Of a stretch of 64,000 nt of DNA, positions 14,986 to 64,000 are shown in pieces. The position numbers and the translations under genes were made by a program. Origin of the DNA: Schmidtea polychroa. Lineage: Eukaryota. The stretch covers positions 235,414,001-235,478,000 of the forward strand of contig CM097885.1 of assembly GCA_044892525.1 (NCBI GenBank), written 5' to 3'. A model generated the notes under the pieces. That model had not been told where the DNA came from. It searched no databases and was given only the letters and a program-made list of their open reading frames with translations. How positions within the stretch are numbered: position 1 is the first letter of the stretch; each line of letters starts with the position of its first letter.

Positions 14986-15228
14986 AATATTTAGTAAAAA
15001 ATTAATATGGTGAAAATGATTTTTTAAAATTAATATAATAATTATTAATAATAGTAGTTTGGCAGGGTTTTTATTGAAAGAATTTTGTGGTGAGAGAAAA
15101 TTTATTGACCAATCTTATAATAATATAAAATTCTTTTAATAAAAACCCTGCCAAACTACTATTATTAATAATTATTATATTAATTTTAAAAAATCATTTT
15201 CACCGTATTAATTTTTTTACTAAATATT
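14986..15228. repeat. Long near-perfect inverted repeat (foldback), arms about 103 bp, spacer about 35 bp
   Basis: 14986-15088 is the reverse complement of 15124-15228 apart from 3 substitutions and one 1-nt indel. Confidence 0.9.
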
Positions 15229-24170: not shown

Positions 24171-24689
24171 ACTCTGAAATAATTGCAATGACTGGCATAG
24201 ATCTCATGAATATCGTATCCCAATTTTGTATAATAAATACAATAAATGTTATTTCAGAGATATGTGCATCTATTACTACTTTGATTATTTTGAAAAATAT
24301 TGTTGTATTATATTAAAACAAAAATTTGTTAAAGCAAATTTGCATTTTGAATTATATTAATGAGATATTTTCATTGTAATTGCTGTAAAAAATCTTAGAA
24401 ACTTTTCTGTCGCTTGAAGCAGTAAAGTTTTGTCTTTACATATTAACTTGTACCTGAATAAAAAAATTTACAAAAAATTTTTATAATATATTTCCTGTGA
24501 GTAGTTTTAGTGTTTCTAGGCATGATTCAAAAATGGGTTTTCAGGTATCAGAAATTTATTTCATTATCTATTGTCACTTGGTTATTATTTCAAAGGTTTT
24601 GCAAATTTTTCTTTGTCCGTTTCAGAAGATTTAAATAATTTTTTACTATTTTCTATAAATGTTGTGTAATTGTAATTTTTTATCTTTAG

Positions 24690-24765
24690 AATTAGGATTG
24701 ACATCATCCAGTTTAAAATGTCCAACTGTAGGATGTACAGGACGCGGTCATGTCAATGGTAATCG
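24690..24765 (+). CDS. myt1: MyT1-family exon, finger 2 N-half (runs into gap)
   Basis: Acceptor ctttag|, phase 1, in frame with the previous exon. Translates ELGLTSSSLKCPTVGCTGRGHVNGNR. Confidence 0.9.
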
Positions 24766-26990: not shown

Positions 26991-27529
26991 CGGACAAATC
27001 TAAGGCTGTCGTTAAATTTTTCTTCGTTATTTTAAACCGTTTAATCAATTTTTTATAATTTCAACATTTTTATCCACGAATTTTCTATTAAAAGATTTTT
27101 GACTCCAAACTTTTTTGGGTTGGTAGTTTTAAAACAGTTACAAAAATTTTGCCACATCTTCATTTGAGAGTTTTTATATTTTTTTTTAAAAGGGATATTT
27201 CTGATATTTCCAAATAAAGGTTTTCTCAGTTATGTGATCTATAGAACAATTAGTTCATTCAAGCTGCTCCAGGCTACTCTAACATTTCCCATCTTGCCTA
27301 GATTTGGTTTTCTTAGATATTTATTTTTTCTATCATCCTGTCCAGTGACAAAGTTACTTCAACATTCAAAGAAATTTCTTTAACCAGAGAAACCTTTGGT
27401 TTTGGCTCGTCCATATTGAAATATATAATTCTTTGTTAGTTTCCCTACTGACTTGTTACACTAATTAAATAGTCTTTGTAATAAAACAATTTAAATAAAA
27501 TTTAGTTTAATTATCAGCAATAATATTAG

Positions 27530-28212
27530 ATTCAAAGTCAGCAGACAAAAAGGACTCCAATTCTTCTAATTCCATGAATCATTTATACAATTTGAGCCTC
27601 CTCAACAATCTCACAAATTCATTCAACAAACTTGATCAGTATTCATCACAATCGTATTTCTATAACAATTCTCAAGACATCCTAAATCCGAGTCCGGGAT
27701 TTAATGAAATCGTGTCTCATATCTCCAAACAGAATCTCGGTTTCAGATTTTCCGGAAATTTGTTGAATTCCAGTGCAAATCGATTGTCGAAAAATCTTAT
27801 TGATAATATAATGCATGAACAGACGAATGTCGATAAATTCAAAATAGATACCCTTATTAAACCGAACCCCCCGTCATTGTGGCAGGGGTTTAATCAATTT
27901 AAATCGGAAAAGTACGACTCTCCACTGCCGTCATTGCTAAATCATGACATGATTGGTTCACAAAAACATTCTTACTTTACGCATTTAAACAATCAAAATA
28001 AACCAAAATATAATCCAGAATTTTTATCCAAGCAGATTTCAAAGCAATTAAAATATTTTTCCTTCTTTGGAAATTGCCCGATTCCTCAGCGTCCACCTTA
28101 TTCGAATAAATATTACAATCAATTGAATTGCAGTCCCACTGTCAAATCCCATTTATCTATTTTTGAAGAAGATCTTGAAGAGCCCTTAGATCTTTCACAA
28201 ACTCAAAGATAA
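27530..28212 (+). CDS. myt1: MyT1-family terminal exon (Asn/Ser/Pro-rich, C-terminal PLDLS)
   Basis: Acceptor tattag| at 27529, open to TAA at 28212 and in frame with track ORF 27574-28212. Ends EEPLDLSQTQR. Linkage to the finger exons is inferred across a gap. Confidence 0.7.
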
Positions 28213-35439: not shown

Positions 35440-35720
35440 ATTTTGCTCAATAATTTTCGGATCCAATGACTTTTTTACTAAAGCTTCACAAATTACACGT
35501 TCTTAATAATTATTGAAAATTTTTAATAATCAGACATACCTATTTTTTCCTACATCCCATATTGTGCTCACTAATATTGGTCAATGTCTTCGGTCTATAA
35601 TGTTCACAAGCTCGTATACAGAGATGATAAGAAGTCTCTCCAATGTATGTGGCATTGTACCCATTACATGTAAATTGATAAATGAGATCAGAACACAATC
35701 CCACTGAAGTTTTAAATAAT
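35440..35720 (-). pseudogene. Penelope-like GIY-YIG fragment
   Basis: Minus strand reads LCSDLIYQFTCNGYNATYIGETSYHLCIRACEHYRPK. Confidence 0.8.
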
Positions 35721-38289
35721 TAAATATTGCGTACTTTACATGAATTAGTGAAGATCTTATAATTTAAATTCCCCAGCTGCTTGCTTATCTTTCTTTTATA
35801 ATCGGTAAAACCTTCTGACTACGACAATACCAACATAAATTTAGGCTCATTTATTTTGTTGAAAATTATTTTTGTTTTATTAAATATGCGAGTTGGATTT
35901 GCAAAATTTGTTTAATATTTACGAAATATTGTTTAAAACTGTTTATTTTTTGTCAACCATTGGTAGTGGTAAGATGTTAGAATTCAATGAAAAAATAATT
36001 TTGTGGTTGAATACTTTGTAAAGTTAATCAGACAGGTGCAAGAAAGTTTCTGAAATTAAAAACATTTTCTCTTTGTGAATTATTTCACTATAACTATTTA
36101 GTTTATATTTTTCTCAAAGATTTTGTTGAAAAATAAGAGAGTAAAACCTTTTTAAATGGCTCAAAGAAGATCCCAAAACTAAACTCGTAATAAGATAAAG
36201 TTATAGAAATTTCATATAAAACTATTTCAATTAAGCTTTGGAGAATAACCGTAAAAATTAGATATCCTCCTAATTCCTTTGTTTTTTTATATCTGAAAAG
36301 AACATTATATTTTAAATTGTTACTAATTTCACACTTAAATACAGAATTTCCAAACATTTTTTGACAATTTAATCTATTTATCTGCAAGGGAATTCGTCTT
36401 AAAGGGAAAACTTCTTCATATTTACTTGCAATTTTTAACCTTTTTTCATATTTTTTAAAATTGAATTTCTTCTGGTTAAATATTTTTACTCGTCTTTTTT
36501 AATTTTGGATTTTTTTTATTATACAATTACCTTGTTGTCATTGATCACAATGGACTATTAAAAATTCATAAAAATAATTAATAACTCCAAAAATTTGCTA
36601 TTAATTGATTTCATAAGATTAATTTATTGCCTATTTGTCAATGTGATGATTTGTGACTGTTTTCAATGTTTTTTTAATTAATTAATTAATTAATTAATTC
36701 CATTTAATTTTATAGTTATTTTTTTCACTACTGGCTTCATTTTTTGTTATCCTATATCCATGAATCTTATTAAAACTCATTTGTTTCCTTCGTTTTAATA
36801 TTTGAATTTAATTAATTAATTAATTAATTTTAATTAATTCCAAACTCTTATGATAGATCAAATAATAATTTAGTGATAATAAATAGTAAAATTATGTAAA
36901 TTAACACCATCGGTTTATAATAAAATTGTATTTTTAGTTGGTTACTCAAATGATTTTGAAAATTTATAATTTTCATGTATTTTGTACGATATTAAAAGAT
37001 ATTAGGCATATTTATAAATATCAATTTTAAAGTCCAATAACCATTGCTCCTGGATCCAATTAATGAAATTTAATAAATTTGTTACATTTATTTTAAGGGG
37101 GAATTTTCCATTAATTCATTTTTGAAAATAAAATGAAAACCCAATTAATTATTAATAATTTTATTCTATATATTATTATAGACTACTTATTATTATTCAT
37201 CAGTATAATTTAAATTTTTTTATATTTATTTAGGTTTCAATATGCAGAAAAAGAATCTTAGCCAAATCAGTTATTAAATAAATAATTATAAATCCTATCA
37301 GGTAGCAAGGCATGAACAATTACATTTTGTCCTTTGTGATTGTTTGAAATTATAATTTATTTTAAATAATTTACTTTTATTTATTGTTATCAGTTAAATT
37401 TTCAAATGAGATTTTTGCCGTTGAAAATAAAATTTTGTTGTTAGACGGAAATCAATCAATTAAATTTCTTAAGGAAAACTTCAGATTGAAAAAAAATGGA
37501 ATTAAAAAATTTTCTCTCAATAGTGAACAAGGAAAATAAATTTGAAGTCTGGCATATGATATCCTTGATTAAGAACATATGATATCATCTGTTAGGAACA
37601 TTTATCGAAATTGAGTTTTTATCATTTATTTTTGTCTAAAACTGCAATTTCTACTGAATAAGATCAGTCTTTTATAGATTTGCATCTTTCTTCCAATAGT
37701 GTTAATAATTTCGGATGCGACAAAATAGGTTAGATCTAACCCAACACGCTCTGAGTTTATATTATGTATTTTTAGGTTTTAATTACCTGAAATGTGTGAC
37801 GTAAATATGACTCGTACTTTATTTGCTTATAGCAGATTCGATTTGGAAAGGGTGTATTTTAATTACATGAAAGTCATTTTAAATTTTTTTTTAAATTCAT
37901 ATTATTTTAATTTATATTTTTTTAATTACAGTCTTTATAATTAACGCTGTCTCGAATGAATTTTTTAATTTATTTAATTGCGCAAGTTTTTCTTCAATCA
38001 TGTAAATTTTTATCACTACAAAATTGGTATAAAAGCAGTTATTTTTTAAATCGGAATATTTGATTGCCTTGGATAACGTTGGTTCAGTTAACATCGCGTT
38101 TTTCTGGAACCATTACATAATTTTGTAGAAGTGAAAGTTGGCAAAGGCTGGTAAGAAGTGAGTAGGTAAAGCACAATTAGACATATGTAGTAGACTTTCA
38201 TGAGTAGACTTTCAATTTGTAGTTTAAGGTCCTAATATTGATATAATTTCCTTATTAATAATGAAGTCCTTCGGGATAGAAGAACCCCT

Positions 38290-45400: not shown

Positions 45401-47562
45401 TTTCCCCAATTGATTCGCTGTTGAATGACTGATCTAAAATTAACAATATCAATAAACTTAAAAGTATGATTAATATTATTTTTCATTTAAAAATATTCAG
45501 ATAAACCGACTCATCAAATCCCTTTATGACTGGGGCGGTAAAGGTCATCATATTAATGAAATAATTATATTTCAATCAAAATGAAACTTACAAATTTATG
45601 AAAATAAAATCAAGTTTTCAATTTTCGTCATTTGAATTTGCATCTATAAAAAATATATAATAAAAATAGATAAAATTTTCGGTATAAAATTATAACGAAA
45701 AGTTCTCATTAAAAGAAATTGTGCATCATAATTCAAATCAGACGGCACTTCCAAAATTAATCATAATTTAAATAAAAACTTAAAATAAAACTCAACATAC
45801 TTAGAATTTCAAGATTCATGTTTTAAACGATTTCATTAGACATAGTAAAATCGATAGTTTAAAAGCATAATTTGTATTTCATATTAGTTATTTAAACAAA
45901 ATTTGAAATATTTTAAATATAATTTATGACTTTTTTATTATTACTTTTTTCTAGAAAGATTTTCATGCAAATATGTGATAATTATTTGGTTTAATAGATT
46001 TTTCTTTTAATATTGAAAGCCATATTTTAATCTAATAACCAATTTAAAATGAAGAGATGAAATTTTCTACAACTTAGCTTTATTCATATACATTTTTCTT
46101 ATAATTAATTTTATTGTATATATTTATAATTAACACAATTGTTGGCATTAAGTCATTATGGTCATTTAATTTTAAATATTGTTTAGATTTATAAAATAAA
46201 AGGGAAATATGTTGTCTATCTGTTGCTACGCCTCTCGATCAATTCTTTTTTGGTACAACGGCAATGTCTGAACCATCACCAATTGACTCCACCCATATGA
46301 TGTGGCGTATATGTAATAATCAGCCATAAAAAATCGACGAATTCTACAGGATAACGTCCATTTTGGAAGTTTGTGGCAGCTTGTATAGTCACTGCTTTCT
46401 TTCAATACTTCGAAAATTTCACTTATTACTAATTTCAAATCAATTCACTTTATTTTCCACTGACTTTTTAATCATTAAATATTTCCCCACCGACCTTTAG
46501 ATTACGCCGGGCTTACCAAAATTTGAGTTAGTTTTAAATGATTCTGTGGGATATTTGAGAATCTAACTCCACGTGCTGTTGATCAAAGAACTGGCTCCAC
46601 GATAGTAACTTTTATTGATATTACACTTTACAAACTGAAGTTTTAATATTTTTACTTGATCTATGGGCAGGTAACCATATGGAAGACCATCTAGAGTAAG
46701 TTGACTAAACGAATTTGATATTACTCAAAAGAACTTTTCTTTTCTTTGATGCTTTTGGTTTTGCATTAATTTCAATTACTTCACTTCTTTCACTTTATTT
46801 ATTTTTTGTCTCAGACCAGAAAATTGACCAGCGATCTACCTTTATCGCTCATTTCTATAATTTTATTCACGGATCTTTTCAGTGATTTTTACTGATTGAG
46901 TAAGTCTTTTGCTTTTGCAGAAATGCTATCATTTGATTTCGATGGAGACTTGCCTAATTTCGATTAATATTGGATCTAAAGTCTAACTACTTGAGACAGA
47001 ATGTTTTGTTAAATACTCTAATTGTATAATGCCACAAGATTTCCTTTTACATATAAATACGAGTGTTGGGCTAAAACGTGGAGTTTCGAAAACTGGAGCG
47101 AATAGAAAAGTAATCCTTGAAAAATAAACGAAATAAAATAAAAATATAAAGTACCATCAAATTCTCGCTAATAAATCAAAAAGGAACAATAAAATATCAA
47201 TAAGAGAATAAGAATAAGTAAAACAAACTAAATAAAACCCAATAAACCCCTTGAGATTTAGAAATAAAGCGATTTAGGACCCAGCAGATGAAATAGAATA
47301 AAATAAGTAAAAAAGTGACAACAAATAAAAGAGAAATTTAAGAAATAAATAAAAAATAAAACTATCTTTAAGTCTAATTAAAACAAAAAATTATATTACA
47401 ATAAAGTAGCAATAAATCCACAGGAAAAATAGGAGGAAAATAATAAAAATAAGAAAATAAATAAAATAATAATAGGAAATAAGTTAAGTCATTAAAATCT
47501 AATATATTATAATAAAAAACATAAAAATAATAATAAATAGTAAAAATACAAACAAGTCGTGT

Positions 47563-47590
47563 CCTGATTGGACGAAAAATAATATATAAG
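47563..47590 (+). promoter_or_regulatory. Candidate LTR promoter: inverted CCAAT (ATTGG 47567-47571) and TATATAAG (47583-47590)
   Basis: Motifs are seen directly after an A-rich U3-like tract. Function is inferred. Confidence 0.35.
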
Positions 47591-49996
47591 GAACGGAAAA
47601 TATCTGTAGATTACCACTTTTAAAAAATTTTTCTACAGGTAAACTTCGGTTCGTTATATACTACCACTTTTAAAAAATTTTTCTACAGACTTGACAGATT
47701 TCGGAACCTTTAATTATCCTACAGCGAACTAGTTCAGAGATTACCAAACCAAACCGAGGAAGAAATATATAGAGGCCAAACTACAAATCCATTCGGGAAA
47801 AATTTTAAATTCAACCGATTTAACTTCAGTTTTCGAAACTCAAGGTATGCCTCGACAGTTGTTTTATTTATGGTTATTAGTTTAATTTAGTTAATCATTA
47901 TAAATATAATAAAACAATTTCTTATAATAAATTTATTTAAATGAAAAGTTGCCTTTCTTCATGGTACCGACGACTGTACCATCTGAGAGCTCCCAGTATG
48001 ATGTGGACGAGTTGGAATTGCACTGCAGTAGAGGACACCACCGTGGAAAGGTTGGTATGCATAAGAAATCACGAACATGCTGAAAAGAGAATGTGATATT
48101 TGTAGAGAGTGATATTTGTCATATTAGAGATCCACCAAGGAGACGATGAGGTTTCGATCATGTAGGAGGAGCAACATCATACTCGGAGATCCAAATGATA
48201 TGGTCGCCGGGTAAATTTTATTTATGCATTTTCTATCATTCAGTTTGATTATTATATTGTTGATTTGATTGAATGGAAAAGAGTTGATTGGTCCCTCATG
48301 ACGGTGCAAGGAGGTGGCAGCAATGAATGCCTTCTTGGGTGTGTCGTGAGGGGTGAAGAAACTCAGTAGGTGGAACATCCAGTTAATAAATGACCGTTCC
48401 TTCATCAAGCGCGATCGTCTGTAGAGCGTACCATCGGTTCATTTAGTTAAATCGAGATTTCCAGTAGATGTAGAGATGATTTGAATTCCGAATGCAGACA
48501 ATTCAGAGCGAGATAGGCAGTGACGTTCGTACAGATTCGATGATAATCCACATAGATAGGAGGAAAATTCTTTTCGTGATATTCAGCCGGTCAATCGACG
48601 TAGTTAGGAAAGAACGGTGTCGACCATAGATTGCAAGTAAATCCAACGATTTTTCGGTGACGCTCTGCGTTTGCAAGGTTCTGTCTGATTTGTGCCGTCA
48701 TGATGTTAGCGGCTACATCCATTGTCGATGTACTCTTACGATTTGATTGTCGTCCTTGAGTCACCAATGCCAGTGATAAAGAATCTCTCGCTGACAGGGA
48801 AGTAAACATCTTGTAGTGAAATTATCAAAATTCTTACTTCGAGCCCGCAGACAGTAGTTGTCAACGATAACGAAATCAGTTGATTTGCATTAGCCTGCGT
48901 AGAGTTAGTCGACAGGAGATATCTGATAACGTCCTGGAGAAGGAGATAACATGTTAACTTTTCTGGGAAAATGTCAAATGAATAAGCTGATAGTCATTGA
49001 TCTGAATTAATATCGTAAAAGGAAATTAGATGATATTGTTGAGCTTACCCAATAATCTATGAAGTTGTCGCCCACTCAGATTGATTAATCTGATTTTTCG
49101 ATTCATCTACGGCTGCTTATTTGAGGAATCTATTACGCAACCGCTAATATTCCGACTTGAGCATGCACATACACACGCACCACAGTCAAATATGCATAGG
49201 GCAGTGTAAAAGGAAATCAACGATTTTGGTGATGTAATAGCGGCATGATGGTATAAATTTCTCTAGAATAGCGAGATAATAGGATGAAGTAAGGGGATGG
49301 ATTTCCCCTACACAACTCGATATACAATAATTTATCATAACAGCATAAACCATCATTCGCGGAGATAGCCAACATACAGTTACAGATACCACCAGGAGTA
49401 ATGACACACCTACACAGTCAATCATAATGCATAATCACAAGTAAACGTTTTCCATGACGACGATTTTCGACGCGTTATTGGAATTAATTAGATGTAGATT
49501 AGAGCTGAATTTTCAACTGATTACACGATCAATTCCATAATTTTGAACGAGATAAAAACATAAATAATCTATTCCGTCGCCGTGAATTATTTCTCTGTAA
49601 TGTTAGGCAGGCCTACCTCGACGAATTGCCATAATGATATCGGCAAAAATTCTTAATTAAAATATACTAATGGGAACAAGGTTGAAGGGGATAAAGTAAA
49701 AGACGGGTTTTACCTGGGAATGGCCCATCCGAAATTAAACTCAAAGGGCGAGGTTTGTGTAGAAAGAATTTTTGGTATACGAATCCCCGTTTCCTTTTCT
49801 TAAATTACACGAATCAGGTGAAGAGATTTGAATGTTTGCAACTGAATGACTGCGTATAGAGATGGATGAAGAAGTGTGTGGGTCATCGTTGGGTGGTATG
49901 TTTGATCAAACTCCAAAACCATGCCCAAAAATTTGATTTTTCTTCACACTGATAGAGGTTTCTTCGAGTAAATATAAACAATGATTGATTTTCTAG

Positions 49997-50758
49997 ATGG
50001 CTACATCGTCCAACAACGCCAAAGAACTTCGCCCGTGTTTTTCTTGTGCGGACAAGAACGCGGATATCGCCCAACTCCACTTATATATCGGGGCTCTCAA
50101 AAAGAGAATTGATCTCTATGAAGGAACGTGGTTCTCCCCGCCACAAATGAAAGAGGAACGCAAGAAAATTCTCCGATTAGAGCATTGCAGGGACAGCCTG
50201 CTAGAGGAAAGCCGTTGTCAGCGGCTCACCATCAAAGCACAGTCAGAAGCCCTCCATAAGGTATATACGGAGGCAGAATTGGCTAAGCGGGTGCGAGAAT
50301 TCCCCGTTCTGGATGGGACGAATGTCTTTCCTCGTCACCACCCGTCTCCTACATCTTCCGGCTCGCACTGCCAGGGGCACGGCTCACAACTGCCGCCCAT
50401 TCCACCCCCGGTGTTGTCATGTCACCAGCCAAAGATAGGTGGACCTACTGATCCCATCGTAGCTCCAATCTTGGTAGCACCAATCGGTACCACGAACACC
50501 GAAAAACCCCCGACTACCCGCAAACGGAAACGGCCAACTCGAGCCGAGAAGAACCAAAAACGCCGAGATGCGATGACAGCACTCGAGACGTCCTTATCGG
50601 CGGCGAAATCAAAAATCCAAGAGATAACGTCCTCCCATTCAATCCCCTCAAAGGAAGTCTTCCGCATTGTTCCAGCTGAGGGCATCAAATACATTGTAGA
50701 TAGCCGATTACCGGTCGACATAGATGAGATACTGGCCGATGGGGATAACTTTGTTTAA
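49997..50758 (+). CDS. Orphan accessory protein, 253 aa (CxxC, coiled coil, Pro-rich linker, basic NLS-like RKRKR)
   Basis: Long intact GC-richer ORF, immediately preceded by the acceptor ttttctag|ATG and followed by an AATAAA signal near 50889. Confidence 0.75.
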   Translation: MATSSNNAKELRPCFSCADKNADIAQLHLYIGALKKRIDLYEGTWFSPPQMKEERKKILRLEHCRDSLLEESRCQRLTIKAQSEALHKVYTEAELAKRVREFPVLDGTNVFPRHHPSPTSSGSHCQGHGSQLPPIPPPVLSCHQPKIGGPTDPIVAPILVAPIGTTNTEKPPTTRKRKRPTRAEKNQKRRDAMTALETSLSAAKSKIQEITSSHSIPSKEVFRIVPAEGIKYIVDSRLPVDIDEILADGDNFV

Positions 50759-51758
50759 TGTGATGTAAAATTGAGCTTGATTTCCTCTTCATTGAGTTGT
50801 AAATTATCTCGTGAATGTTGCTAATGTTATATCTTTTTGACTGTTGTTGATCTGTTAGTAGTAATGATATTTTTATCGTTTCAGTGTCAATAAAATTTTC
50901 TGTTTGATTTTAGTTTTGTCGAGCTTTCATATATTTGTTTGTGCAATTAGAGTAGATGAGATAATGCTGCGGAATGAAGATAATTAAGGTTGAAGGTTGT
51001 TCCTTTGGACCAGGATCAGACCGAGTGACACGCATGTATATGGGTAAGTCCTTCTAAGGCACCGTGGGACCCGAACTGAGAAAGGGTTAGGAGTAGTCCT
51101 AAGGCAGGGGCTCACCTGCTAACCTTTTCCGACCCGTGTGAGCAGCACCAACATGGAACATCACCATGGGCTCATATGTGGGAATATGCAATCAATCATT
51201 TGGAGTATGTGTAGAAAATGTATAACGGAGCCATGATGCTTGATAGGTGTGATGGAAAGGCATGTATAATTTTTTTTTTCTTCTCCACATACGCCAACAT
51301 GATTTTTGGGGGCTCAGCCGGGATCTATATTGATTTGTTTGATTGTCTATTTTTGTGTTATGATGTGTTAGATTAACAATTTAATTAATTATGATAAAAA
51401 CGGAATCGGGGCTGAAATGAATTATAGTGCAATAAAATGATACGAACTGTCTGAGTTTGAAATAGAGCATGTGGTGAATGAAACGAACCTAAATGAGTTG
51501 GAATGAATGTGATGAAGTATGATGAGAAAAGAAAACGGGAATTGGTTATTGTGGTTAATTTTAACTGGTTAAAATAAAAGGGGGGGCGGAGAAAGTAAGT
51601 GATTAAAGCGAAAAGATGAAAGGGGAACTTCAAAGATCGAATAAAATACAAAAGTTAAAACACTAACGCACAGAAGTCAACGAATACTAAATACAAATAT
51701 AATAATATTATTTTTAATACCAGCAGGAACAAAATAATAACAACACATTCATTTAGAT

Positions 51759-52238
51759 ATGTCAGAAGCTAGACAACATCTACAACAGCTAAGCCGGTTC
51801 GTCGAAATAGAAAATGATTCAATAAAAACATTAAGAGAAAAACTGAAACAAATAGAACTGCTAGAACAACAAAGCCACAACGCACCGCTGATATCCAAAC
51901 AAAACTTTCTAACCGACAGATTAGGATCAACAAATACCGATACCGACTTGTCTATTCATTACCAATGGTTTCAGCAACGTCTCGACGACCCCGCTCTGAA
52001 CATCGAATATGTGAGGATACGCGAACGAGTCAAAACTCTGTCTCAGCGGATACGAACATCAATAGTAGAGAAAGCAGCGGCCTTGAGAACTTGTAACATT
52101 TGCAAGATGCGACCTGTCAAAATTCTGATTCTACCTTGTGGGCACCTTAGCCATTGTGACGAATGCGCCGCCGGTTTAATCCGTTGTTCTATGTGCACAT
52201 GTGTAATAAAAGAGAAGCACACCATCTACTTCAGTTAG
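51759..52238 (+). CDS. Coiled-coil plus C-terminal C3HC4 RING (IAP/MDM2-type) putative E3 ligase, 159 aa, no BIR
   Basis: CNIC-x11-PCGH-x3-CDEC-x6-CSMC followed by the hydrophobic tail IYFS-stop, the layout of IAP-type RINGs. Confidence 0.9.
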   Translation: MSEARQHLQQLSRFVEIENDSIKTLREKLKQIELLEQQSHNAPLISKQNFLTDRLGSTNTDTDLSIHYQWFQQRLDDPALNIEYVRIRERVKTLSQRIRTSIVEKAAALRTCNICKMRPVKILILPCGHLSHCDECAAGLIRCSMCTCVIKEKHTIYFS

Positions 52239-52821
52239 GTATGCGATCGTCGCTCGGTGAAGGAAACTGGATGATTAACAATTAGATTAAACATTTTTGA
52301 TATTTTTGTTCTGAATTAATTCGGTAATGTTTTATAATGATAGCATATATTATCTGTAATGTGGAGTAAATAACTAATAAATCCTTTCTGTGTATTCATT
52401 TCATTATACGAAGTTATAAATCGATTTGTGTTGTTATAATTTTCACCATGAAGAAAGGGCATTTTAAAAATTTAAATTGATTATTTAAAGTGGAACTAGT
52501 CCCATCATAGTGCTAAAGGGGGAATAAACCGAGCCACCTTCGGGAGGTACGATATTGGAACCATTTGGGAAGGGACAACCGATCACCCCGAGTAAGAGAT
52601 GTAAGGCGAGGTACCATCGCGAATATTGAAAAGTTTCTGCGGTATGGCTGATCACCATACCAATGTAGAAATGGATCAATGCGATCGTTTTGCGTTTTAA
52701 GCAAGGGGGGAAAGGGGAAACCTTCCAAAGCGGTACAGATTAAGTCGACAAATAAAAGTAAAAATAGGAAGATGACAGTATAGAATAAAGACAGAAAAGG
52801 AACGGAAGCATGCAGAGTTTA

Positions 52822-53265
52822 GAGACATTAAGGCCGAGCTGTTGAAAAGTCCAGCCGGTCAGGGAAATTGAAACTGAGCTGTGAAAAGTCCAGCCAGTCG
52901 GAGATATTAAGGCCGAGCTGTTGAAAAGTCCAGCCGGTCAGGAAAAATTAAAACTGAGCTGTGAAAAGCCCAGCCAGTCGGAGATATTAAGGCCGAGCTG
53001 TTGAAAAGTCCAGCCGGTCAGGAAAAATTAAAACTGAGCTGTGAAAAGTCCAGCCAGTCGGAGATATTAAGGCCGAGCTGTTGAAAAGTCCAGCCGGTCA
53101 GGAAAAATTAAAACTGAGCTGTGAAAAGTCCAGCCAGTTCGGAGATGAAGAAGATTGAGCTGTTGAATAGTGCCAGCCAGTCGTAAGATCGAGTTGTTGA
53201 ATAGTCCAACCGGTCAGGAGAAGAAGATTGAGCTGTTGAAAAGTGCCAGCCAGTCGTAAAGGCCT
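52822..53265 (+). repeat. Tandem array: four 80-bp units (two sub-repeats each) plus three diverged sub-repeats
   Basis: GAGATATTAAGGCC recurs at 52901, 52981 and 53061. The core GAGCTGT(T)GAA(A/T)AGT(G)CCAGCC(A/G)GTC occurs 11 times. Confidence 0.95.
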
Positions 53266-53923
53266 AAAGTAATAGTGAGATAGCATTCAAGCTACAAGTT
53301 GATAACATTTAAATTACTAGTGAGATGGAATATTAAAGCTAGCTAGAAGCAAAGTGAGTTTGAAATATGGTATTTGAATTTAGAAAGGATTAAACGAGCT
53401 CGTGGGAGGTAATAATGAAATTTTTTTTTCAGTGAGAAAGAGAAACTGAAAAGGAAAATGAATTAAAGAGATAATGAAAATAAAGAATAAGTGATGAGTA
53501 AAAGAGGAAGGTGATTAATTAATTAAAAGGGATCCCAGATAAGTAGACAAAGTTCTACAGAATTTTTTTTGGTTTAAACCGGTTAAACGAATTTTGTTTT
53601 GGTTACAGAGTAGAACCAAATAAGGGGAAACAGAGATGAAAGATTAAGTAAAATAGCGGAACCGCGTAAAAGGATTAAGAAAATATGGGAGGTAATAAGC
53701 AGTAACTGACAACGACCTATCGATATTATAAATGCTAACTATAGATAATTTATACGACTATATAGATAATTGTTACTACCCCAAATAGATAATTTAAAAT
53801 CGACGAAAAATATGGGTTGATGGGTAATTATATTCCGCGAAGAAGTGTATGAGGGGAAATGAAGAGAAGTATAACAGAGGCCCTAAAACGGTGTCTGTGC
53901 TTGAATGTGGCAAAAAGGAATGA

Positions 53924-56900
53924 TTGATTCGTGTAAGCAAAGGCAACACGATATCATATTTTCATTGTAGACATCAATCCAACCAAGTCAATTCAGAACC
54001 AGCTCAAGAGGAATCCAGAGAATATACAAACAACCCAGGAAAAGCAATTCAGAACCCGCACAAAGGAAGACAATATCAAAACCGAACTCGACCAATTCAG
54101 CAGACGCTAACCGTAGAAAATCCACGTGAAAAGACAGAAAAGAGTAAAAGGAAAATCACGGATAAACCCAACCTTAGATCTTCAAGTAAGCCAGGAGACG
54201 TATTATTTTCAGGAGACGAATTAGATCAACTCAAAAGAGGACGATCATTTAGGCAGCAGAGAGGAATATCACAAGGAGCAAAAAGACCCCACAAAACACC
54301 GATATACGATCAAGAAAACCCCACAGCCGGACATACGCCCAGTCGATCTAGAAGTAGAGAAAGTCTATCCGATATAACAAACAACCTAACCGGGTCAACA
54401 GAAGAATTATCCGTCCATAATTTAGCTACATCATTAGAAAATTTAAAAGAAATTTTAGCATTTCAAGAACCAATCAAGATGAATGTAGCAAAAACCGACG
54501 AATATAAAGAAAAATTTAGAGGCGAACCGTTCAACGGGAATGCGAACAAGTTGGCAACGTTCATAACCAATTTTGAAGTCTATATCGATGTGTGTGGATG
54601 GACATCCGAAGCAATTAGTAAACGAATGCCTCTGTTTTTGTGCGATAGCGCACTCGAAGTGTATCTGGAAGCAAAAGAAAGAAATACGAAATTAGACAAT
54701 TGGGAAAACATCAAAACATTTTTGAGAAAAACATTCGGAGCCAGCAAACCGATAAATCAAGCGTTAGGTGAACTGGCAAGTAGAAAACAAAGAGCAAACG
54801 AGTCAATTACGTTATACGCAAGTGAATTGCGAAGATTGGCAAAGAAGGCCATGAACGGAAACTTGCCGGAGGAAAACTTAATTGGGTACTTCATAGAAGG
54901 ACTACGCCGAGAAGAGGTAAGGGCCTCGGTGGGATGTCAAATGTGTAAAACACTAGAGGAAGCTATAGATTGGGCCACAAGATGCGAACTACACCTCCCG
55001 GCACAAATGAATGTCATGCAAGAGGAAGGAAGAATCGCAACAGCAGCGGTGAAAACGGAAAATGGAGATAACAATAATCATGAACCAAAGATGAATCAGT
55101 TTATACCAGGTGCGCATCAAATTTTCAAACCACCACAAGGACGATCAAACGGGAATAACAGTGAACGCAACAACTCGAACAATGGGAACAACTTTAATAA
55201 TCGACGAAATATGAACGATAACAAACAATGCCGAACATGCGGTAAACCAGGACATTGGGATAGAGATTGTTACCGAAACGCAAATTGCAATAGGTGTGGA
55301 CGACGAGGACACACGGAAAATATATGCCAATCGAGAGGATGTTTTAACTGCGGGCAACCAGGTCATATCTCAAGAGACTGTCGAGAAAGGAGCCAACATC
55401 AACGACCACCACAGCGAAATAATAACTATGCACCAAATCCGCAACGACAAAGTAATCCTAGTGAGGGAAAGCAAATGAATGTGATGCAAGAAATTTCACA
55501 AATGAAGCAGATGATGCAACAAATGATGAGACCGAGACAAGAGCAAGTACCACAACAAACCCAGAATATACGCATGATGAGAAGCACCGAGAATCTTAAC
55601 AATTATGAAGTGCAACAACATGCACAAGAATGGCAAAGACTACAAGCTGAAGAAGAAAGGATAAAAAGAGAGCGAATTCAGCAGCGACAAGAACAACCAC
55701 TACGAATAAATATGATGAGGATGGTAAAGGAGATAAAGGAGCAATATTGTTACAATTACGGTAAAAATCCAAGAGTTGTACCTATGAGCGAACCAGAGAA
55801 ACCGAAAGAAACAATTCCAGCAGCAAAAAAGGAAAATTCAACAACACCGCTAAAAGGAAATCAGAGAATTCAGAAAATATTTTGGAAAAAGATAAAAGAT
55901 AAAATCGAAAGAGAAAATGAGCAAACAAAAACAGAAGCAGAAGCAGAAAATAACGAAAATGGAAAACAGATTAATCATCTAAAGCATAATATGATACGAG
56001 AATTAGACTCAGAGGAGCTAACGATACTCGAGAACAAAAAGTTAAAGAAAGTACCAAGAATGAAAAATTTACGAATTAATATGATGAGGACAACAAAGAA
56101 GGTGTTGTCAACAGATGACGATGAGGATTATGTGAGTAGCCTTGGTGGAGAAATGTTACAGTTAAATGAAAATATCGACCAACTAAGAGAAAAGATCGGA
56201 GCAGATGAGGATGAAAGAGAAAGCGACGTGACAAGCGAAAGCGAAGACGAGAATATCGAAATGAAATTGAGAAAAGAAAGAGAAGAAGCGATAAAACAAG
56301 TAAAGGAAATACTTCCAGTGGTAGTAAGAAACCAGGAGTTCATCGACCTTATACCATATAAACGCTTCTTACAAAAGATAATGAAACTAGAAAGAAACGA
56401 AAAAGATCTAATACCAAACGAGGAAAAAGCGATAATAAAGAAGTATATGGAAAAAATGAAACAAGCGGAGACAACACGCTATGTAATAAAAATCGGAACG
56501 AGTAAAGGACTCGAGAGAATATGGATAAAAAATGCAGTCACAGACGAGCTTTTTGATTGGATAAGAGAACATTTGGGCAGCTCGAGAAAGAAAGAGTATT
56601 TATATCAATATCAAGGAGAACAAATTAAGCCAGACATGCACCTAATAGATGCATTGATCTGGCCAGGAGAAACTCAAATATTGAAATTGTATAAAGAGAA
56701 GCAACCAGCAAATATTCACGAATGGGCTAAAGACGCCAAGGCCGAGTATGATTTTAACATCAAGCTGAAGCTGGAACAAATAAAACAATGCACCTTGCGA
56801 CGAAATCTAGATAAATTAATCAAACAAATTCAAGAACAAGTCGAAGATAACTGGGATTTACTCATAGCAAGACGAACTCCAGACATGCATGAACTAATGA

Positions 56901-59900
56901 GCCGATTACGAGATACAGAATTGCTCAGGATGAGCGATTGGAGAACCATAAATTTGATCCACAAATATGGAAGGTTGAAAGAAACGCAACCGCAGAAATT
57001 AGAAATAACCATATGGTTACCAAACGAGGAGAAACGACGAATAAAGATGAGTAATCAGAGTACGGTGGATGACTTAGTAACCAAGATAAACCAAGAGATA
57101 ACGGAAAAAGTACGAAGCGAGAGTAGCGACGGGATGATAGATGACGTAGTCATGATGTACGATAAAATAATATTACGGGCCGAAGACGACACCTCGCTAA
57201 GCGAAATGGGAATGTGGGATAATCATCAAATCATCAGAATATTGCCCATGGACGAATTCCGAACAAGAGATATAACATACCAGAAAGAAATACGAGACAG
57301 GATGAAAACGCTATATCAAAAATCAGTAGAGATAATTGAAATTCATCAACAGTGGCTAAAAGAAAAAGAGCTTCAAGGAAAAATAAAGAAACTAAGTGTT
57401 AGATCCTGCAGACGAACCCCATGGGAAAGGACGTGGAATGCGGAAAACAAAGAATGGGAAATCAGGAAAGGGATTTTCGTGGAAACAGACATTGGTGAGA
57501 TAGAAAGCGAATCAGAAGAAGAGGAAGATGAACCTCCAAAATACGAAGAGGACGAAATAGAATCGACATCGGACGACGAAAGCGAAACGGATGTTACATC
57601 AGAAAGTGAAACGGAAACCAGACATATTCATGCGATGAGAAAGAAAGAACGCGAATATGCCGATATGGACAGCGAAGAAGCGATGGAAGCTCGAGAACGA
57701 GAAGAGAAGGAAAGATATAAACAATTAGGTGATATCTTAGCAACGGGAACAAAAAATCAAAAACGTCAAGTAATAGCATTGGCTAACATCATCCTAAAGA
57801 CATCAGAGAATATCCACAATCTAAGAGAAATGGCGAAAGCGATTGAGGAATACAGACAATATAACGAATGGTACCCAGAACAGCTAGAACAAATTATTAG
57901 GAAATGGAGAAACCAAGAATGGGCACAAGATACCCAGGAAAGGTATCGTATCCGAGTCAAGTATCCCGACAAAAGCATTGAGGATACAGAAGTACATCCA
58001 ACAACAAAGATCAGAGAGTTAAAAAAGAAATTAGCATACGAAACTCCATTTCACCTACAACTATTCGGAAAATCGTTGGATGATAATGCAGATGTCGGAA
58101 TAACACCCATGAGATTGGGGGAGATCAATGTATTGACAATGGCAGAAACATTGGGAAAACCGATTAAAAGGAAGAGCAAATCCAGTAAACCTACGAAAGG
58201 TAGCTTGAGTACACCAAGCCCTAACAAAGTGGCAAGTAAAACGAATGAAACCGAGGAAATCGAGGAAATTATATTGGAAGACAGCGATGAAGGAGCTGGA
58301 GAAAGATCACCAATTCTGGTAAGATGGCCGACAGGAGCCGAAATATGGACAACAAGCCAACCGTCAACTAGCTATCAGCAGCCAAATAAGCTGAGTATCG
58401 AGGAGATTATCGATAATACAACAGAAACCGAAACCGACGAACAATTCCAACGACAGAAAGGACCAACGAAAGCAACACCAGAAGGTCAAACGGACAAAAT
58501 AATAGACGAATGGAACGAATGGCTGAGAAACAACGATAGCTCATTGCCAAGAACGGATAACGAGAGAAACCCGAATTATGAAAATACAAGGGAAGCCGGA
58601 ACAATGATGGAAAAACGGGCAAAAGGGAGACCCAAGAAGCAAGGAGAAAAACCGGAATTTAAAACTAGAGAACAACTGAAACAAGAACAAGGACAAGTCA
58701 GATTAGAGAAACTGGATAAAATAGTGTGGGATCTAAAAGAGGCCCAGCCAACTATCGAAAGAGGCGAAAAATGGATACGAGAGCTAGTAAAAGATATGCT
58801 AATAATAACGAACCCACAATTGCGACGGTTATGGCAACGAAAAGTAGCAAGCGTAGACGCCAGACAACTATGGAATACAATATCCGGAATAATTCCGAAA
58901 TTAATCAAAGAGAAGACAAAAACCACTAAAACCGATTGGGAAGAGACAAGAAGAGTAATTGAACAATTAACTTTAAACGCAAACGACGACGAACATCATT
59001 TAGTAGTATTAACGTATCTAATGTACAATTTGATGGGATTAGCAGCGAGGAAAATACCTAACAAACAATTCGCAAATCATGTAGAAATGACCGTTACAAT
59101 CATCGAAAATACAATCGAACCACATATTATCCGCGCCGGTGGGTGGAAAAGACTCATACAAGCGCCACGAAAAAACGAGCAAGAGAGATCAATGCAAATT
59201 CGGTTGAAGAAATTACTAAACAAGCTAGAATGGGAATTGCCATTGAAAGACCCAGCCAGCAGAAAAGCGTCGATTAATTCACTAATGATGACCATGATGA
59301 TATGGATGCTCTGCACCAGTGGAGCCGCGGGATTTACTATTTACGACTGTGACAATTCGATAATAGGAGAAAGATACTCCCTGAGAGATATAGAGGAATG
59401 TAGACAGGCGTCTCCGAATAAATTAGATATAGTAAAAAAGAAAGTCTCCTATCACGTATACCAAGAATCAGATTTCATTAGAACGCAAGCTAGAGAATGC
59501 GTAGTATCGAAGAAAGTGTTGGCATATTACTGTGGACAATACTCATATTCAACCCTCATATTACCTGGATTAGATAAAGAAATAGTACCTATACAACGGG
59601 AAGACTGTAAAGAGCTTTTTAGAACCGGAGCGATGAGAATCAGGGATGGAGTAACAATACACGGACAAAGCGGAATGATCAAGACGGAAAGTATCTATGT
59701 AGCCGGACGAGTAAAATCAACGGATGGATCATGTAACGGAGGCACATATACGATCAGAGGAGAGGTGATATCAGGAGTAGTAGTAATTGAGTCCTACACA
59801 GTGGAGTTGAAGGAATACGAAGCACAATTCGACGCAAACAACTATCAAATGAAAACCAACCCAGCATGCAGAGCTACGGAAAACGTGTGTAGAACGGGGA

Positions 59901-62900
59901 TTTCGACTATAATATATGAAGCTAACACCCAAAAATGCCGACTCCAATTGTTAAAAAGTGCTCTATTCAATGAAGTAAAAGGAGAAATTTACGAAAACGA
60001 GGATGACGATGAAGAGAATGGAAACGTAAGGATGCGAAATGGGAAACCAGTTCCGCCATCCCCCAAAGAAAAGAGACTCACAACCCAAAAAACACCAACG
60101 GCATTAATTACCGATGATCCAGACATCGGCATGAGATTCATTAGAGAAAAAGAGACCACCAAATGTGACAGTATAGTATACTGGACGAACTACGCAGGTA
60201 TCTACATGTCAAGGCAAGTAATAGACCGAGCAGTGGGAAAGGTAGCAACGGAGGACGTAAAATTGTACCTGTATGCCAATAATAAGATGGACTTCTTGTT
60301 CCACCGAGGACAAACGACAATGCAAAAAGTGTATTACGATCTTATACAAAATGACTGTTCATTGAATAAAGAGATACTAAAAACAAAATTAGCCATCGCA
60401 ATAACACACCCAGATAACACAATGCCATCACTCCCGTTACCGGATGGACATTTTGGTAGAATGGTGGGAGAGGTAATGTATACATATGCATGTACCAAGA
60501 CATTTGCGCGACTGCCAAGAAAGCCCACAATTCCACCAGGGAAATGCGCAAACGAGTTGGAAATTAGTTACAAAGGGCGAAACAGATTCGTTCAACCCGT
60601 CACTCGAATCATGAACCCAATTGGATTTTATCCGAACACCTTTAACTGTTCAAATGCATACGGACCGTTATATGAAAAACCCGATGGGAAATGGATAATG
60701 TTACCAGTAAAAACCGAAGTACAAGAGCCTAAAAAGTTTGGACTAATAGAACTCGCAACAGAACAAGATTTCAAACCAATTGATGTGTCAAAAGCAGGTA
60801 TGTACTCACCAGAGGATTTAGAAACGGCACGATTAAACGTATTATTCCCAGCAAGACGGGAATCCATTCTATCGAATATGGTTACCATAACTGGGGGAAC
60901 GAATTTCCAGTCAGGCCCCAATTACGAACTATTATTGTCACCTGATCATTTTCAACAAGCCACGTCAAACATGATGAAAGCAATGTGGGGAAGATTTCTA
61001 GTGTTCGGTCAAATGATGGCAGGAATATTGGGAATCATTCTTATTATCCAGATAGTTAGAGTAATATTGACTCAAATGTTAGCGTGTTTTGATATCTATA
61101 AGAGAGAAAAGAAGGTAAATTGGAAATTGATAGTAGGCTTTCTACCATTTTTGGCAAAAACAATGGTGTTGCACGGTCATTCTAAAGACATACATAGAAT
61201 AAAACGATTGATCAAAATACTGACAAAAATAAAAGGAACTGACGAGGAAGTCGGTAGACGATTTCGGAAAACAATGTATGATGAAGCAACAAGGACGCAA
61301 CTGAAAAAGAACAAACCAAAATTCTTAGACAGATTTAGGAATCGATCAAACAGCAGCGATAGTGATGATGACGACAACGGGAATGACAAATACCCATATC
61401 CAAGTAGAAACCCGAATGAAAAGCCAATAGAAACAGCACCATATTGGGAGAAAGAAAAAACAAATACCTGGATAGCCAACGGAAGTTATATACCACCAGA
61501 TATCGTTGGACAACAAACAGCTTTGACCATGACACAAAATATGTATCCACAGTTACCAAGTCAACCAGGGATGAACTATATGCCGACCCGAAGAACGAAA
61601 AGTGTAGACCAAGCGGACGACGTAAGAACGATAGCAGTGATGAGTTCACCAGGAGGTGCGGCAGTAACAGTCATGATCCAAATCAACGGGAAAGAGACAA
61701 GCGCAATGATAGATACCGGAGCAAACGTATCAGCAATAGCAATAAACCAAATACCCAGTAAATGTTGGAAAGATATCGAACAAACAACTATCCATATTAT
61801 TGCATGCAGTAAAGAAACCGTAGACGTAGTAGGAAGATGGTGGACTACGTTACGATATCAGGATAACGAAATTGAAACGTATCTAGCGGTGATACCCAAA
61901 CTGAGTGAACCATGTATAATCGGAACGGATTTAATGCCGGAATTGTTTAAGGAAGTAGTAATCGATTTAACAACAATGTGTCTAAAAGACAAAATGGGTA
62001 GAATATGCAAGATGAACGCAATAATTAGATGTCCGGAGAAAATAATTGTACCCGCAAAATCACAGATGATATGTCAAATAAAAGTGGATGCAGGAATGGA
62101 AGGAGAAGTCATTTTTGAGCCAAGCAAATCATTCGAAAAACGACGAGAATTACCATTAGCAAGAGAAATAATAACAATAAATGAAGACGGGGAAATACCA
62201 ATTAACATCACAAATTTCGAGGAAGAAGACAAGATCATATATGAAAATGAAAGATTGGGTAGATTGACACCCATGATAGACATCGAATTACCAAAAATCA
62301 CCAACGAAACAACGAAAGCGGACGAATTATGGATAATTGATAGCACCTTGCTAACGGAAAAAGAAAAGGAGAGACTTCAACAATTATTGATAGAATATAA
62401 AGATATATTCGCAATTTCGGATTTAGATTTGGGAGCATGCGATGTTACACTACACGCAATACCATTAATAGACGAAACTCCAATCGCACTACGTCCATAC
62501 AAACTAGCAGAGAAGCAAAAAGAGATAGCCGAAGCAGAAGTACAAAAAATGCTAGATGCACAAGTGATCGAACCAAGTTGTTCGCCATGGCAATTTCCAG
62601 TAGTCATGGTGAAGAAAAAAGACGGTACTCAGAGATTCTGTATCGATTATCGGAAATTAAATGCAGTAACAAAAAGAGACACATACCCTTTACCAGACAT
62701 CAATGAGATGTTACTTATGTTACAGGGGGCCGCATATTTTACATCTTTAGATCTGAAAAGTGGATATTGGCAGATCAAAGTCAAGGAGGAAGACAAAGAG
62801 AAAACAGCATTCACATTGGGCCGAGATCTATACCAATTCAGGAAAATGCCGTTCGGACTGACCAATGCCCCAGCATCATTCCAGAGATGTATGAATTTTG

Positions 62901-64000
62901 TCACACACGGGATCAAGCAGTGTATGGTATATATTGATGATTTATTAATATATTCAGCAACTTTCGAACAACATTTGGAAGATATCAGAAACGTGTTCGT
63001 TCGATTACGACAATGGAAACTGAAACTTAAACCATCCAAATGTGATTGGGCAAAAGAAAAGGTTACGTTCTTAGGACACATAGTGTCAGCAAAAGGCAAA
63101 GAACCAGATCCAAGAAACATAGAAAAAATAAAAACATGTCCAGCACCAAAAACTGTCACCCAAGTTCAAGAATTTCTCGGATTATGCGGATATTATCGAA
63201 AATTCATCAAAAACTATGCAGGTATTGCGAAACCAATACAGGAATTAGTGAAAAAGGATATTTCATTTATTTGGGGTGCAGAACAACAAAAAGCGTTTGA
63301 GACATTGCGAGATAAATTAATTGAAGCCCCAATACTAGTACATCCTGATTTCAAGAAACCGTTCCTATTAGCAACAGATGCAAGTGGATATGCAGCCGGA
63401 GCAATATTAGGACAACTGGATGAAGAAGGAAAAGAAAGAGTGATTGGATACTACAGTAGAACGTTTAAAAAGCACGAGAAAAACTATTCCGTAACCGAGA
63501 GAGAAGCGTTAGCAATCATACAAGCAATTAAACATTTTCGATATTTGTTATGGGGACACGAAATATGTATCACCACGGATCATCAACCATTAGTATGGCT
63601 TGGTCAACACAAAGAAGCTTCAAGTAGATTGATGCGATGGGCAATGCAGTTACAAGAATATTCACCGTTCATAAAATTCAAAGCGGGAAGAGCGAATGCC
63701 AATGCGGATTGTATGTCCAGATTTATCTTTCCAGATTTAGTAGATCACGAAATGCAACGAATATGTCTGATGGTAGCAGAAGATTTAGATTTTTGCCAAT
63801 TACGGAAAGACCAACAAGAGGATACAGAGTTGAAGCAAATCATTGAATATGTGAAAACAGGGAAAGCAGAGGTATATGAGAAAGATCAAAAATTGAAGGA
63901 GCATATGGATAAACATCGACATCGATATATTATCGAGAAAGATTGGTTATTGATAATGGATGGCGAGAAAAGACTGATGTGCATTCCCGAGAATAGACGT
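53924..64000 (+). CDS. Single Gag-accessory-Env-Pol polyprotein, at least 3359 codons, 3' partial; first in-frame ATG at 54479
   Basis: Frame +2 is open from the TGA at 53921 to the window end. I translated most of it by hand and found no stop, and the track lists no closed frame +2 ORF here. Capsid, CCHC, DTG, YIDD and TDAS motifs all fall in this frame. Confidence 0.93.
   Translation, partial: [3359 protein letters not shown]
54479..55020 (+). other. Gag capsid domain
   Basis: [24 protein letters not shown]...[12 protein letters not shown]...[20 protein letters not shown]...YFIEGLR. Confidence 0.9.
55229..55381 (+). other. Nucleocapsid with three CCHC zinc knuckles
   Basis: [28 protein letters not shown] and [14 protein letters not shown]. 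Confidence 0.97.
56474..56700 (+). other. Ubiquitin/SUMO-like domain 1 (putative)
   Basis: [18 protein letters not shown]...[12 protein letters not shown]...[21 protein letters not shown], a beta-grasp-like pattern. Confidence 0.5.
56996..57250 (+). other. Ubiquitin-like domain 2 (putative)
   Basis: [32 protein letters not shown]...[29 protein letters not shown]. Confidence 0.65.
57941..58145 (+). other. Ubiquitin-like domain 3 (putative)
   Basis: [30 protein letters not shown]...[15 protein letters not shown]. Confidence 0.65.
58690..59170 (+). other. Bcl-2-like helical domain (putative)
   Basis: VIEQL...LVVLTYL followed by [15 protein letters not shown], a BH2-like GGW at BH1-BH2 spacing. 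Confidence 0.5.
59273..61620 (+). other. Internal signal peptide, chuvirus-like envelope glycoprotein ectodomain, TM anchor (about 60995-61090) and cytoplasmic tail
   Basis: [24 protein letters not shown]...YSLRDIEEC...YCGQYSYS...GSCNGG...LYANNKMDF...DCSLNKEIL...[10 protein letters not shown]...FVQPVTRI...AGMYSPEDL...[22 protein letters not shown], with 14 ectodomain Cys. Confidence 0.85.
61631..62023 (+). other. Aspartic protease
   Basis: [17 protein letters not shown] (DTG 61712-61720) and CIIGTDLM. Confidence 0.95.
62380..63200 (+). other. Reverse transcriptase
   Basis: [51 protein letters not shown] and YIDD (62930-62941). Confidence 0.98.
63355..63730 (+). other. RNase H (Ty3 type), followed by the start of integrase
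   Basis: [18 protein letters not shown]...VIGYYSR...[12 protein letters not shown]...ITTDHQPL...NANADCMSR. The window ends at [10 protein letters not shown], just before the expected integrase HHCC. Confidence 0.95.

Follow-up and report, generated by a model that had tools for sequence, protein, structure and literature searches.

The 64,000-nucleotide stretch of Schmidtea polychroa DNA analysed here, below called the window, carries the 5' part of a giant retroelement. We are fairly confident that this is a recently inserted Burro-type Ty3/Gypsy element, which probably replicates via enveloped particles and whose captured genes probably dampen host cell death and innate signalling. Giant Gypsy elements with an in-frame envelope and apoptosis/ubiquitin cargo are already known; the contribution of this copy is the full anatomy, the dating and the selection analysis of an abundant IAP-less sister of Burro1.

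Boundaries of the element

The full-length element, obtained by reading on from the window into the neighbouring assembly, is 30,585 bp long with an internal region of 22,113 bp, see Table 1. Coordinates above 64000 continue the window numbering past its end. The second LTR copy lies 26,349 bp downstream of the first and matches it over all 4,236 bp with no differences. The hallmarks of Ty3/Gypsy LTR retrotransposons (Metaviridae) are present, i.e., TG...CA LTRs, a target duplication and a tRNA primer site, and Gag, protease (PR), reverse transcriptase (RT), RNase H (RH) and integrase (IN) follow in this order with Gypsy-type profiles and intact catalytic motifs.

An earlier note, made from the window sequence alone, had proposed a giant Gypsy element of over 17 kb and had suggested extending the contig in search of the 3' LTR and the target duplication. 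Both were found, with identical LTRs and CGAG on both flanks. The start it gave, 47023, is corrected to the LTR boundary at 47064. Its leader of about 7 kb is mostly LTR and the 253-aa ORF is present twice, because the first 4,236 bp recur downstream; the true leader is about 2.9-3.2 kb. The two accessory ORFs and the tandem array reported in it are present as described.

Table 1. Features of the element, in window coordinates (the 3' LTR in continued numbering).
Feature	Position	Strand	Remarks
Target-site duplication, CGAG, 4 bp	47060..47063	+	repeated 3' of the 3' LTR
5' LTR, 4,236 bp, TG...CA	47064..51299	+	identical to 3' LTR
LTR-borne ORF, 253 aa	49997..50758	+	no Pfam family; in both LTRs; basic, Pro-rich
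Primer-binding site, 18 nt	51307..51324	+	7 nt past LTR; complementary to 3' end of host tRNA-Pro(TGG) plus CCA
Accessory ORF, 159 aa	51759..52238	+	coiled region, C-terminal C3HC4 RING of IAP-like type, no BIR; Pfam E 5.6e-8
Tandem array, 80-bp unit of two related 40-mers	52822..53259	+	94% matches
Conserved open stretch 5' of first ATG	54158..54478	+	opens at ACG in strong context, 107 codons
Gag: capsid (Retrotrans_gag) and three CCHC knuckles	54479..55384	+	Pfam E 8.8e-10
Three ubiquitin-like domains	56471..58156 (about 56471-56710, 56990-57265, 57929-58156)	+	profile search, model
Bcl-2-like domain	58736..59221	+	Pfam weak singly; pooled profile
Envelope-like fusion glycoprotein, in frame	59270..61069	+	PF24664 (Monjiviricetes-type), Pfam E 3e-71
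Aspartic protease (DTGA)	61640..62008	+	Pfam, motif intact
Reverse transcriptase (YIDD) and RNase H	62609..63661	+	Pfam, motifs intact
Integrase start	63776..64000	+	rest of integrase beyond window
3' LTR	73413-77648 (beyond window)	+	letter-for-letter copy of 5' LTR

The 5-mer TGATT directly follows the 5' LTR (window 51300-51304) and recurs immediately ahead of the 3' LTR; the sequence leading up to the 3' LTR is no plain polypurine tract. The tRNA primer-match pattern has 2,269 genomic matches, which are tRNAs only in part. No tRNA was present at the first three loci of the genomic tRNA search, but a long tandem array with a 475-bp period (G000:C1:130901009 onward) did contain one, a tRNA-Pro(TGG) gene seen in 4/4 fetched units.

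Polyprotein and cargo

The polyprotein frame spans 4,811 codons from stop to stop and encodes 4,626 aa from the first ATG, with the stop at 68359. The earlier note had seen an ORF of at least 3359 aa, which agrees with the 3,359 codons that are open between 53924 and the end of the window (3,174 aa when counted from the ATG at 54479), and had placed about 2100 aa between nucleocapsid and protease, close to the roughly 2,090 aa that separate the last zinc knuckle (residue 302) from the protease (about residue 2,390). The domain order is Gag, three ubiquitin-like (Ubl) domains, Bcl-2-like domain, fusion glycoprotein, protease, RT, RNase H, integrase and ankyrins. In Gag, zf-CCHC matches two stretches (Pfam E 4.5e-8) and the third knuckle was read directly from the sequence. 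Beyond the window the same polyprotein continues with the integrase, two ankyrin clusters and a second predicted signal-ectodomain-TM module. For a dUTPase-like region, in which the element differs from the published Burro description, no Pfam match was found. Five ORFs of 119, 462, 345, 233 and 208 aa follow 3' of the polyprotein, ahead of the 3' LTR, and the 462-aa ORF is a full-length TRAF (RING, zinc fingers, MATH).

The ubiquitin and apoptosis cargo named in the earlier note holds for the RING directly and for the Ubl and Bcl-2-like domains once homologues are pooled. On a single sequence the latter two calls are weak (Pfam E 0.04-0.08), and single-sequence PDB searches with the Bcl-2, Ubl and envelope regions matched nothing relevant. 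A Ubl profile built from nine segments of five families, with the three repeats pooled, matches single ubiquitin-like chains with E down to 3e-7 (ubiquitin, ISG15 and ubiquilin domains). The predicted model has a beta-beta-alpha arrangement at all three Ubl domains, confident for the third only, and Foldseek matches it to ubiquitin/ISG15. For the Bcl-2-like domain, a profile of five rows gave a best E of 0.0015, and the 60 matches listed are all Bcl-2 family members (Bcl-xL, Bcl-2). One broken copy was left out of the Ubl-Bcl-2 alignment and one mis-framed row out of a Pfam search. The 941-residue model in which the Ubl domains were seen was poor overall (mean pLDDT 43.8) and is uninformative on the Bcl-2 fold. 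The BH2-type GGW is invariant in the Bcl-2-like domain and the BH1 motif NWGR is not retained, therefore BH3 binding by this domain is doubtful.

The closest relatives of the element TRAF in a large protein set are only 23-29% identical, and a search of representatives gave 2 proteins. In a tree, the TRAFs carried by the elements cluster with TRAF-like genomic frames that have no introns (support 92/86, below the starred level), and 84 of the 92 genomic TRAF matches are without stops. TRAF parts may shuttle into and out of the polyprotein. A 235-aa protein (P0023) joins a polyprotein piece to TRAF-type zinc fingers, as judged by eye, near the site where MATH lies in frame in a Burro1-like family. 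Many MATH loci outside elements also exist in the genome. The hundreds of element-borne TRAF/MATH copies may bear on the counts of planarian TRAF expansion discussed in the accessible text of PMC6109357.

Leader and LTR-borne frames

The LTR-borne ORF has an acceptor-like AG immediately 5' of its ATG and is conserved in two diverged subfamilies (75% and 35% identity). A homologue is found in the LTR of the Burro1-like family, and an Atlas search with this ORF gave no usable match. The RING ORF shares 36% identity with the IAP RING of the Burro1-like family. At the position equivalent to the tandem array, the sister subfamily has a related array of 74-bp units.

The 185 codons between the opening of the frame and the first ATG fall into two parts. 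The first 75 or so are probably not protein, because a stop closes them in 4/11 copies. The remaining stretch is 72% identical in protein to the sister subfamily, with just 9/40 codons differing, and its opening ACG is retained in 11/11 copies. The ACG may be a non-AUG start of translation, or the stretch may serve as a conserved element of the RNA; the odds between the two are about even.

LTR-overlapping accessory genes are found in complex retroviruses, e.g., HIV nef, MMTV sag and foamy bel. By analogy, the ORF inside the LTR and the several small acceptor-preceded ORFs may be likened to these; however, the element has a Ty3/Gypsy Pol, a single polyprotein and an envelope upstream of Pol.

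In most accessory ORFs the ATG is closely preceded by an acceptor-like AG, and we therefore propose that they would come from spliced RNAs. No GT-AG joint was seen among the 15 of 56 joints listed from four contig sets on the window, and these contigs are uninformative on level, strand and starts of transcription.

A motif of the form basic-hydrophobic-N/C/H/A-hydrophobic-hydrophobic is found where capsid, nucleocapsid, protease, RNase H and integrase end. Defined after the sequence was seen, it has 15 matches in the window polyprotein against a shuffle mean of 2.2, some of them inside domains. In the Burro1-like family there are 11 matches against a shuffle mean of 1.9 and a shuffle maximum of 10, i.e., barely above the maximum, and in two distant families the motif is at chance level. 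The element protease would cleave the polyprotein at these borders.

Envelope and C-terminal module

The glycoprotein proposed in the earlier note is a clear PF24664 match with a 14-Cys ectodomain of 556 aa, a transmembrane helix at residues 2179-2197 and a predicted internal signal peptide. The latter was assigned by eye; its hydrophobicity is below threshold in the window family and its two nearest relatives and above threshold in two distant families. The ectodomain, bounded by the TM helix and the by-eye signal segment, is homologous to that of a published set of GAG-ENV-POL errantiviruses.

Two further hydrophobic segments lie near residues 4294 and 4562. Each of the five families examined has a comparable C-terminal hydrophobic-ectodomain-TM module, although some segments are below threshold in some families. 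The model of this second ectodomain is a six-strand sandwich (pLDDT about 70 over some 75 residues), with a best VIA Z of 7.5 among mixed beta-sandwiches. A fibronectin-III identity, considered by eye, is unsupported, as Pfam is blank and Foldseek gives nothing at E 0.001, and an Atlas search with the module returned no usable match. The terms fibronectin, polyprotein and in-frame are absent from the accessible text of PMC13524379. Neither this module nor the LTR-borne ORF is part of the Burro description in the accessible text of PMC6431247.

Copies, age and selection

Ten further copies were fetched whole; they were picked from the best matches and so lean young, and their LTR pairs are at least 99.9% alike in 10/10. 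All eleven copies have their own 4-bp target duplications and distinct flanks. The earlier note had regarded a lack of the leader ORFs in other copies as a sign of unrelated neighbours, and here the result came out against such a reading: each of the ten carries the RING ORF and the LTR ORF, together with homologues of all five 3' ORFs. The polyprotein is unbroken in five of the ten, and single accessory ORFs are broken in three.

Three of these ten copies form a sister subfamily whose LTR is unalignable by blastn, yet every ORF is kept in order. Identity between the subfamilies is 88% for the polyprotein, 42% for the RING ORF and 35% for the LTR ORF. Genome-wide, 617 exact junctions of LTR end and primer site, common to both subfamilies, were found (reversed control 0), together with 121 LTR starts of the window-family type. 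Nearly half of the RT matches (73/150) sit in frames of at least 4,700 codons.

Selection was estimated as pairwise Nei-Gojobori dN/dS against a natural sister-subfamily copy. The ratios, which are rough because dS is near saturation, are 0.05 for the polyprotein and for the envelope ectodomain, 0.02 for the Bcl-2-like domain, 0.01-0.05 for the Ubl domains, 0.08-0.11 for TRAF, 0.09 for the LTR ORF, 0.32 for the RING ORF and 0.25-0.43 for the 208-aa ORF. As the copies keep the cargo and dN/dS is low, the cargo belongs to the element and is selected as protein. The recent activity or selection suspected in the earlier note is thus borne out on both counts by the comparison of LTR identity and dN/dS that it proposed, with young LTR pairs, identical in the window element, and purifying selection across copies.

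Between the copy at G000:C1:168.4 Mb and the window copy, dS ranges from 0.09 (RING) to 1.7 (LTR ORF), a spread that suggests recombination between subfamilies. Head-to-tail runs of junctions or genes of the family with 13.5-kb or 26.4-kb spacing are seen at G000:C1:77268881-77323122, C2:107.33-107.36 Mb and C1:72.66-72.69 Mb, which suggests tandem or LTR-sharing copies.

Relationship to Burro and other families

The accessible text of PMC6431247, citing Grohme 2018 and Jurka 2007 on Burro/GYPSM1, describes Burro/GYPSM1 of Schmidtea mediterranea and a Burro-like element of Dugesia tigrina, with lengths over 30 kb. The order given there is Gag, Ubl/SUMO-like, BCL2-like, Env in frame between gag and pol, PR-RT-RH-IN and ankyrins; the in-frame Env is called a first, and Burro elements are proposed to be integrated proviruses that interfere with apoptosis and ubiquitination.

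The window element shares with Burro, as described in that text, a length over 30 kb, one ORF of 4,600-5,100 aa, a three-knuckle Gag, Ubl, a Bcl-2-like domain, an in-frame Env, Pol, ankyrins, accessory ORFs and tandem repeats. It agrees with the group in total length (above 30 kb, of which about 22-25 kb is internal) and in having a single ORF, about 4,900 aa in Burro, with the Burro domain order. From the published Burro descriptions and the comparison within the genome, the element is almost certainly of Burro type. It lacks both marks of Burro1/GYPSM1, MATH in the polyprotein and a BIR-RING IAP, and is therefore not Burro1. MATH occurs here in the downstream full TRAF ORF, while in D. tigrina it is described in an upstream accessory ORF. 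No BIR-type motif was found in six frames, and the IAP of the Burro1-like sibling matches the RING ORF only. The Burro elements mentioned in the earlier note are the right type, and the element may correspond to Burro-2, -3 or -4 or be distinct from them. The earlier note had also allowed that a published element might have the same architecture; this is largely so, because the order and the provirus idea are both already in the text of PMC6431247, and the architecture is not novel.

The genome also contains a Burro1-like family. Its RT is 89% and its integrase 81% identical to those of the window family, and it has the same gene order, a BIR-IAP and an in-frame MATH. One copy of about 35 kb (G000:C1:127698831-127734133) has MATH inside a 4,688-aa polyprotein, with TRAF and a BIR-RING IAP encoded in ORFs of their own. 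BIR matches in the genome number at least 150, most of them in frames of 392-393 codons. Burro1 itself (Lee et al. 2026, as reported in the accessible text of PMC13465017) belongs to the same group, and the window family differs in having no IAP ORF between TRAF and the next ORF. BURRO1 transcripts are under PIWI control according to the accessible text of PMC8532177.

Six S. mediterranea GAG-ENV-POL elements with an HSV/gB-type ENV, Smed_errantivirus_1-6, are listed in PMC13524379, in whose accessible text related envelopes are modelled as a gB-like trimer with fusion loops. The gene order and a homologous envelope are shared with the window element; the nearest of those listed is Smed_errantivirus_5 with 107/187 identical residues (about 57%, hand count), and over the compared stretch the window envelope is identical to none of the six. 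Another family in the window genome is identical to Smed_errantivirus_2 at 191/195 envelope residues (hand count), a match that points to a Schmidtea host. The table of these elements, as accessible, gives no LTR or tRNA, while the window element has a 4.2-kb LTR and tRNA-Pro.

Five families keep the envelope, although RT identity falls as low as 49%. Two of these are smaller, with 1.1-kb LTRs, Ubl or Bcl-2-like domains and the C-terminal hydrophobic-ectodomain-TM module. Smaller Gag-Env-Pol copies lie at G000:C1:110157847-110175583 (about 17.7 kb, 3,319 aa) and G000:C2:139620081-139633644 (about 13.6 kb, 3,029 aa).

Proposed mode of replication

We suggest that transcription would start from the LTR, that tRNA-Pro would prime reverse transcription and that replication would run along the Ty3/Gypsy route, which is established. 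The Gag-Ubl-Bcl-2 part would be cytosolic and the internal signal would send the glycoprotein into the ER lumen; the envelope TM would then bring Pol-ankyrin back to the cytosol on the envelope's tail, and the second signal and TM would make another small surface ectodomain at the C-terminus. Should signal peptidase cleave between Gag and the envelope, Pol would enter the particle on the envelope tail and not as a Gag-Pol fusion. Apoptosis and TRAF/ubiquitin signalling would be the targets of the Bcl-2-like, RING, TRAF and ankyrin products. Replication through enveloped particles, with captured genes dampening cell death and innate signalling, is likely, and cell-to-cell spread of the element is about as likely as not.

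A less likely reading is that copying is intracellular only and that the envelope-like protein is kept, e.g., for membrane anchoring of Pol/Gag at assembly, with no infection. In planarians, stem cells would allow somatic insertions to be inherited in the absence of infection. The envelope is also in frame, so that its loss by stop or frameshift would also lose Pol, and among the papers listed on such elements no particle data were found. However, the missense constraint covers the entire 556-aa ectodomain, the envelope has been kept in five families, and related envelopes are modelled as a gB-like trimer with fusion loops in the accessible text of PMC13524379.

An improbable reading is that the cargo is kept mainly for the benefit of the animal, the element being a tolerated partner and not a manipulator. 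Such a benefit has a precedent in the IAP of Burro1, which is reported to protect stem cells from apoptosis (Lee et al. 2026, cited in the accessible text of PMC13465017). The window family and its sister are, however, without a BIR-IAP, and constraint across hundreds of dispersed mobile copies fits selection on transposition. The copy survey rules out that the intact frame and the leader ORFs were created by assembly, or that they are unrelated sequences beside an ordinary Gypsy element: assembly collapse can yield identical LTRs, but flanks and target duplications are distinct throughout, the ORF set is always the same, diverged subfamilies are constrained, and contigs from a public run, possibly the source of the assembly, span the left junction.

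The data on this copy allow two questions to be put to the test: whether Gag-Env-Pol elements move from cell to cell in an animal where stem cells transmit insertions, and whether the reported benefit of Burro1 depends on the IAP alone. More tentatively, it can be speculated that Burro elements are active enveloped planarian viruses that build the whole virion from one membrane-threaded polyprotein, with a mid-chain class III fusogen, Pol on the fusogen tail, a second surface protein at the C-terminus as attachment partner, a regulator encoded in the LTR and a captured TRAF that dampens innate signalling. If this is true, the presence in one genome of sister families with and without an IAP would offer a natural experiment on the switch from virus to mutualist.

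Other features of the window

Host-like coding pieces are found at window 24659-24765 and 27511-28209, and the first has a CCHHC-like zinc-finger motif, which we take to be of the Myt1 type. A near-perfect, MITE-like inverted repeat of 91 nt lies at 14996-15217. A pair of repeats at 17440-17712 and 35560-35844 is 80% alike, in opposite orientation.
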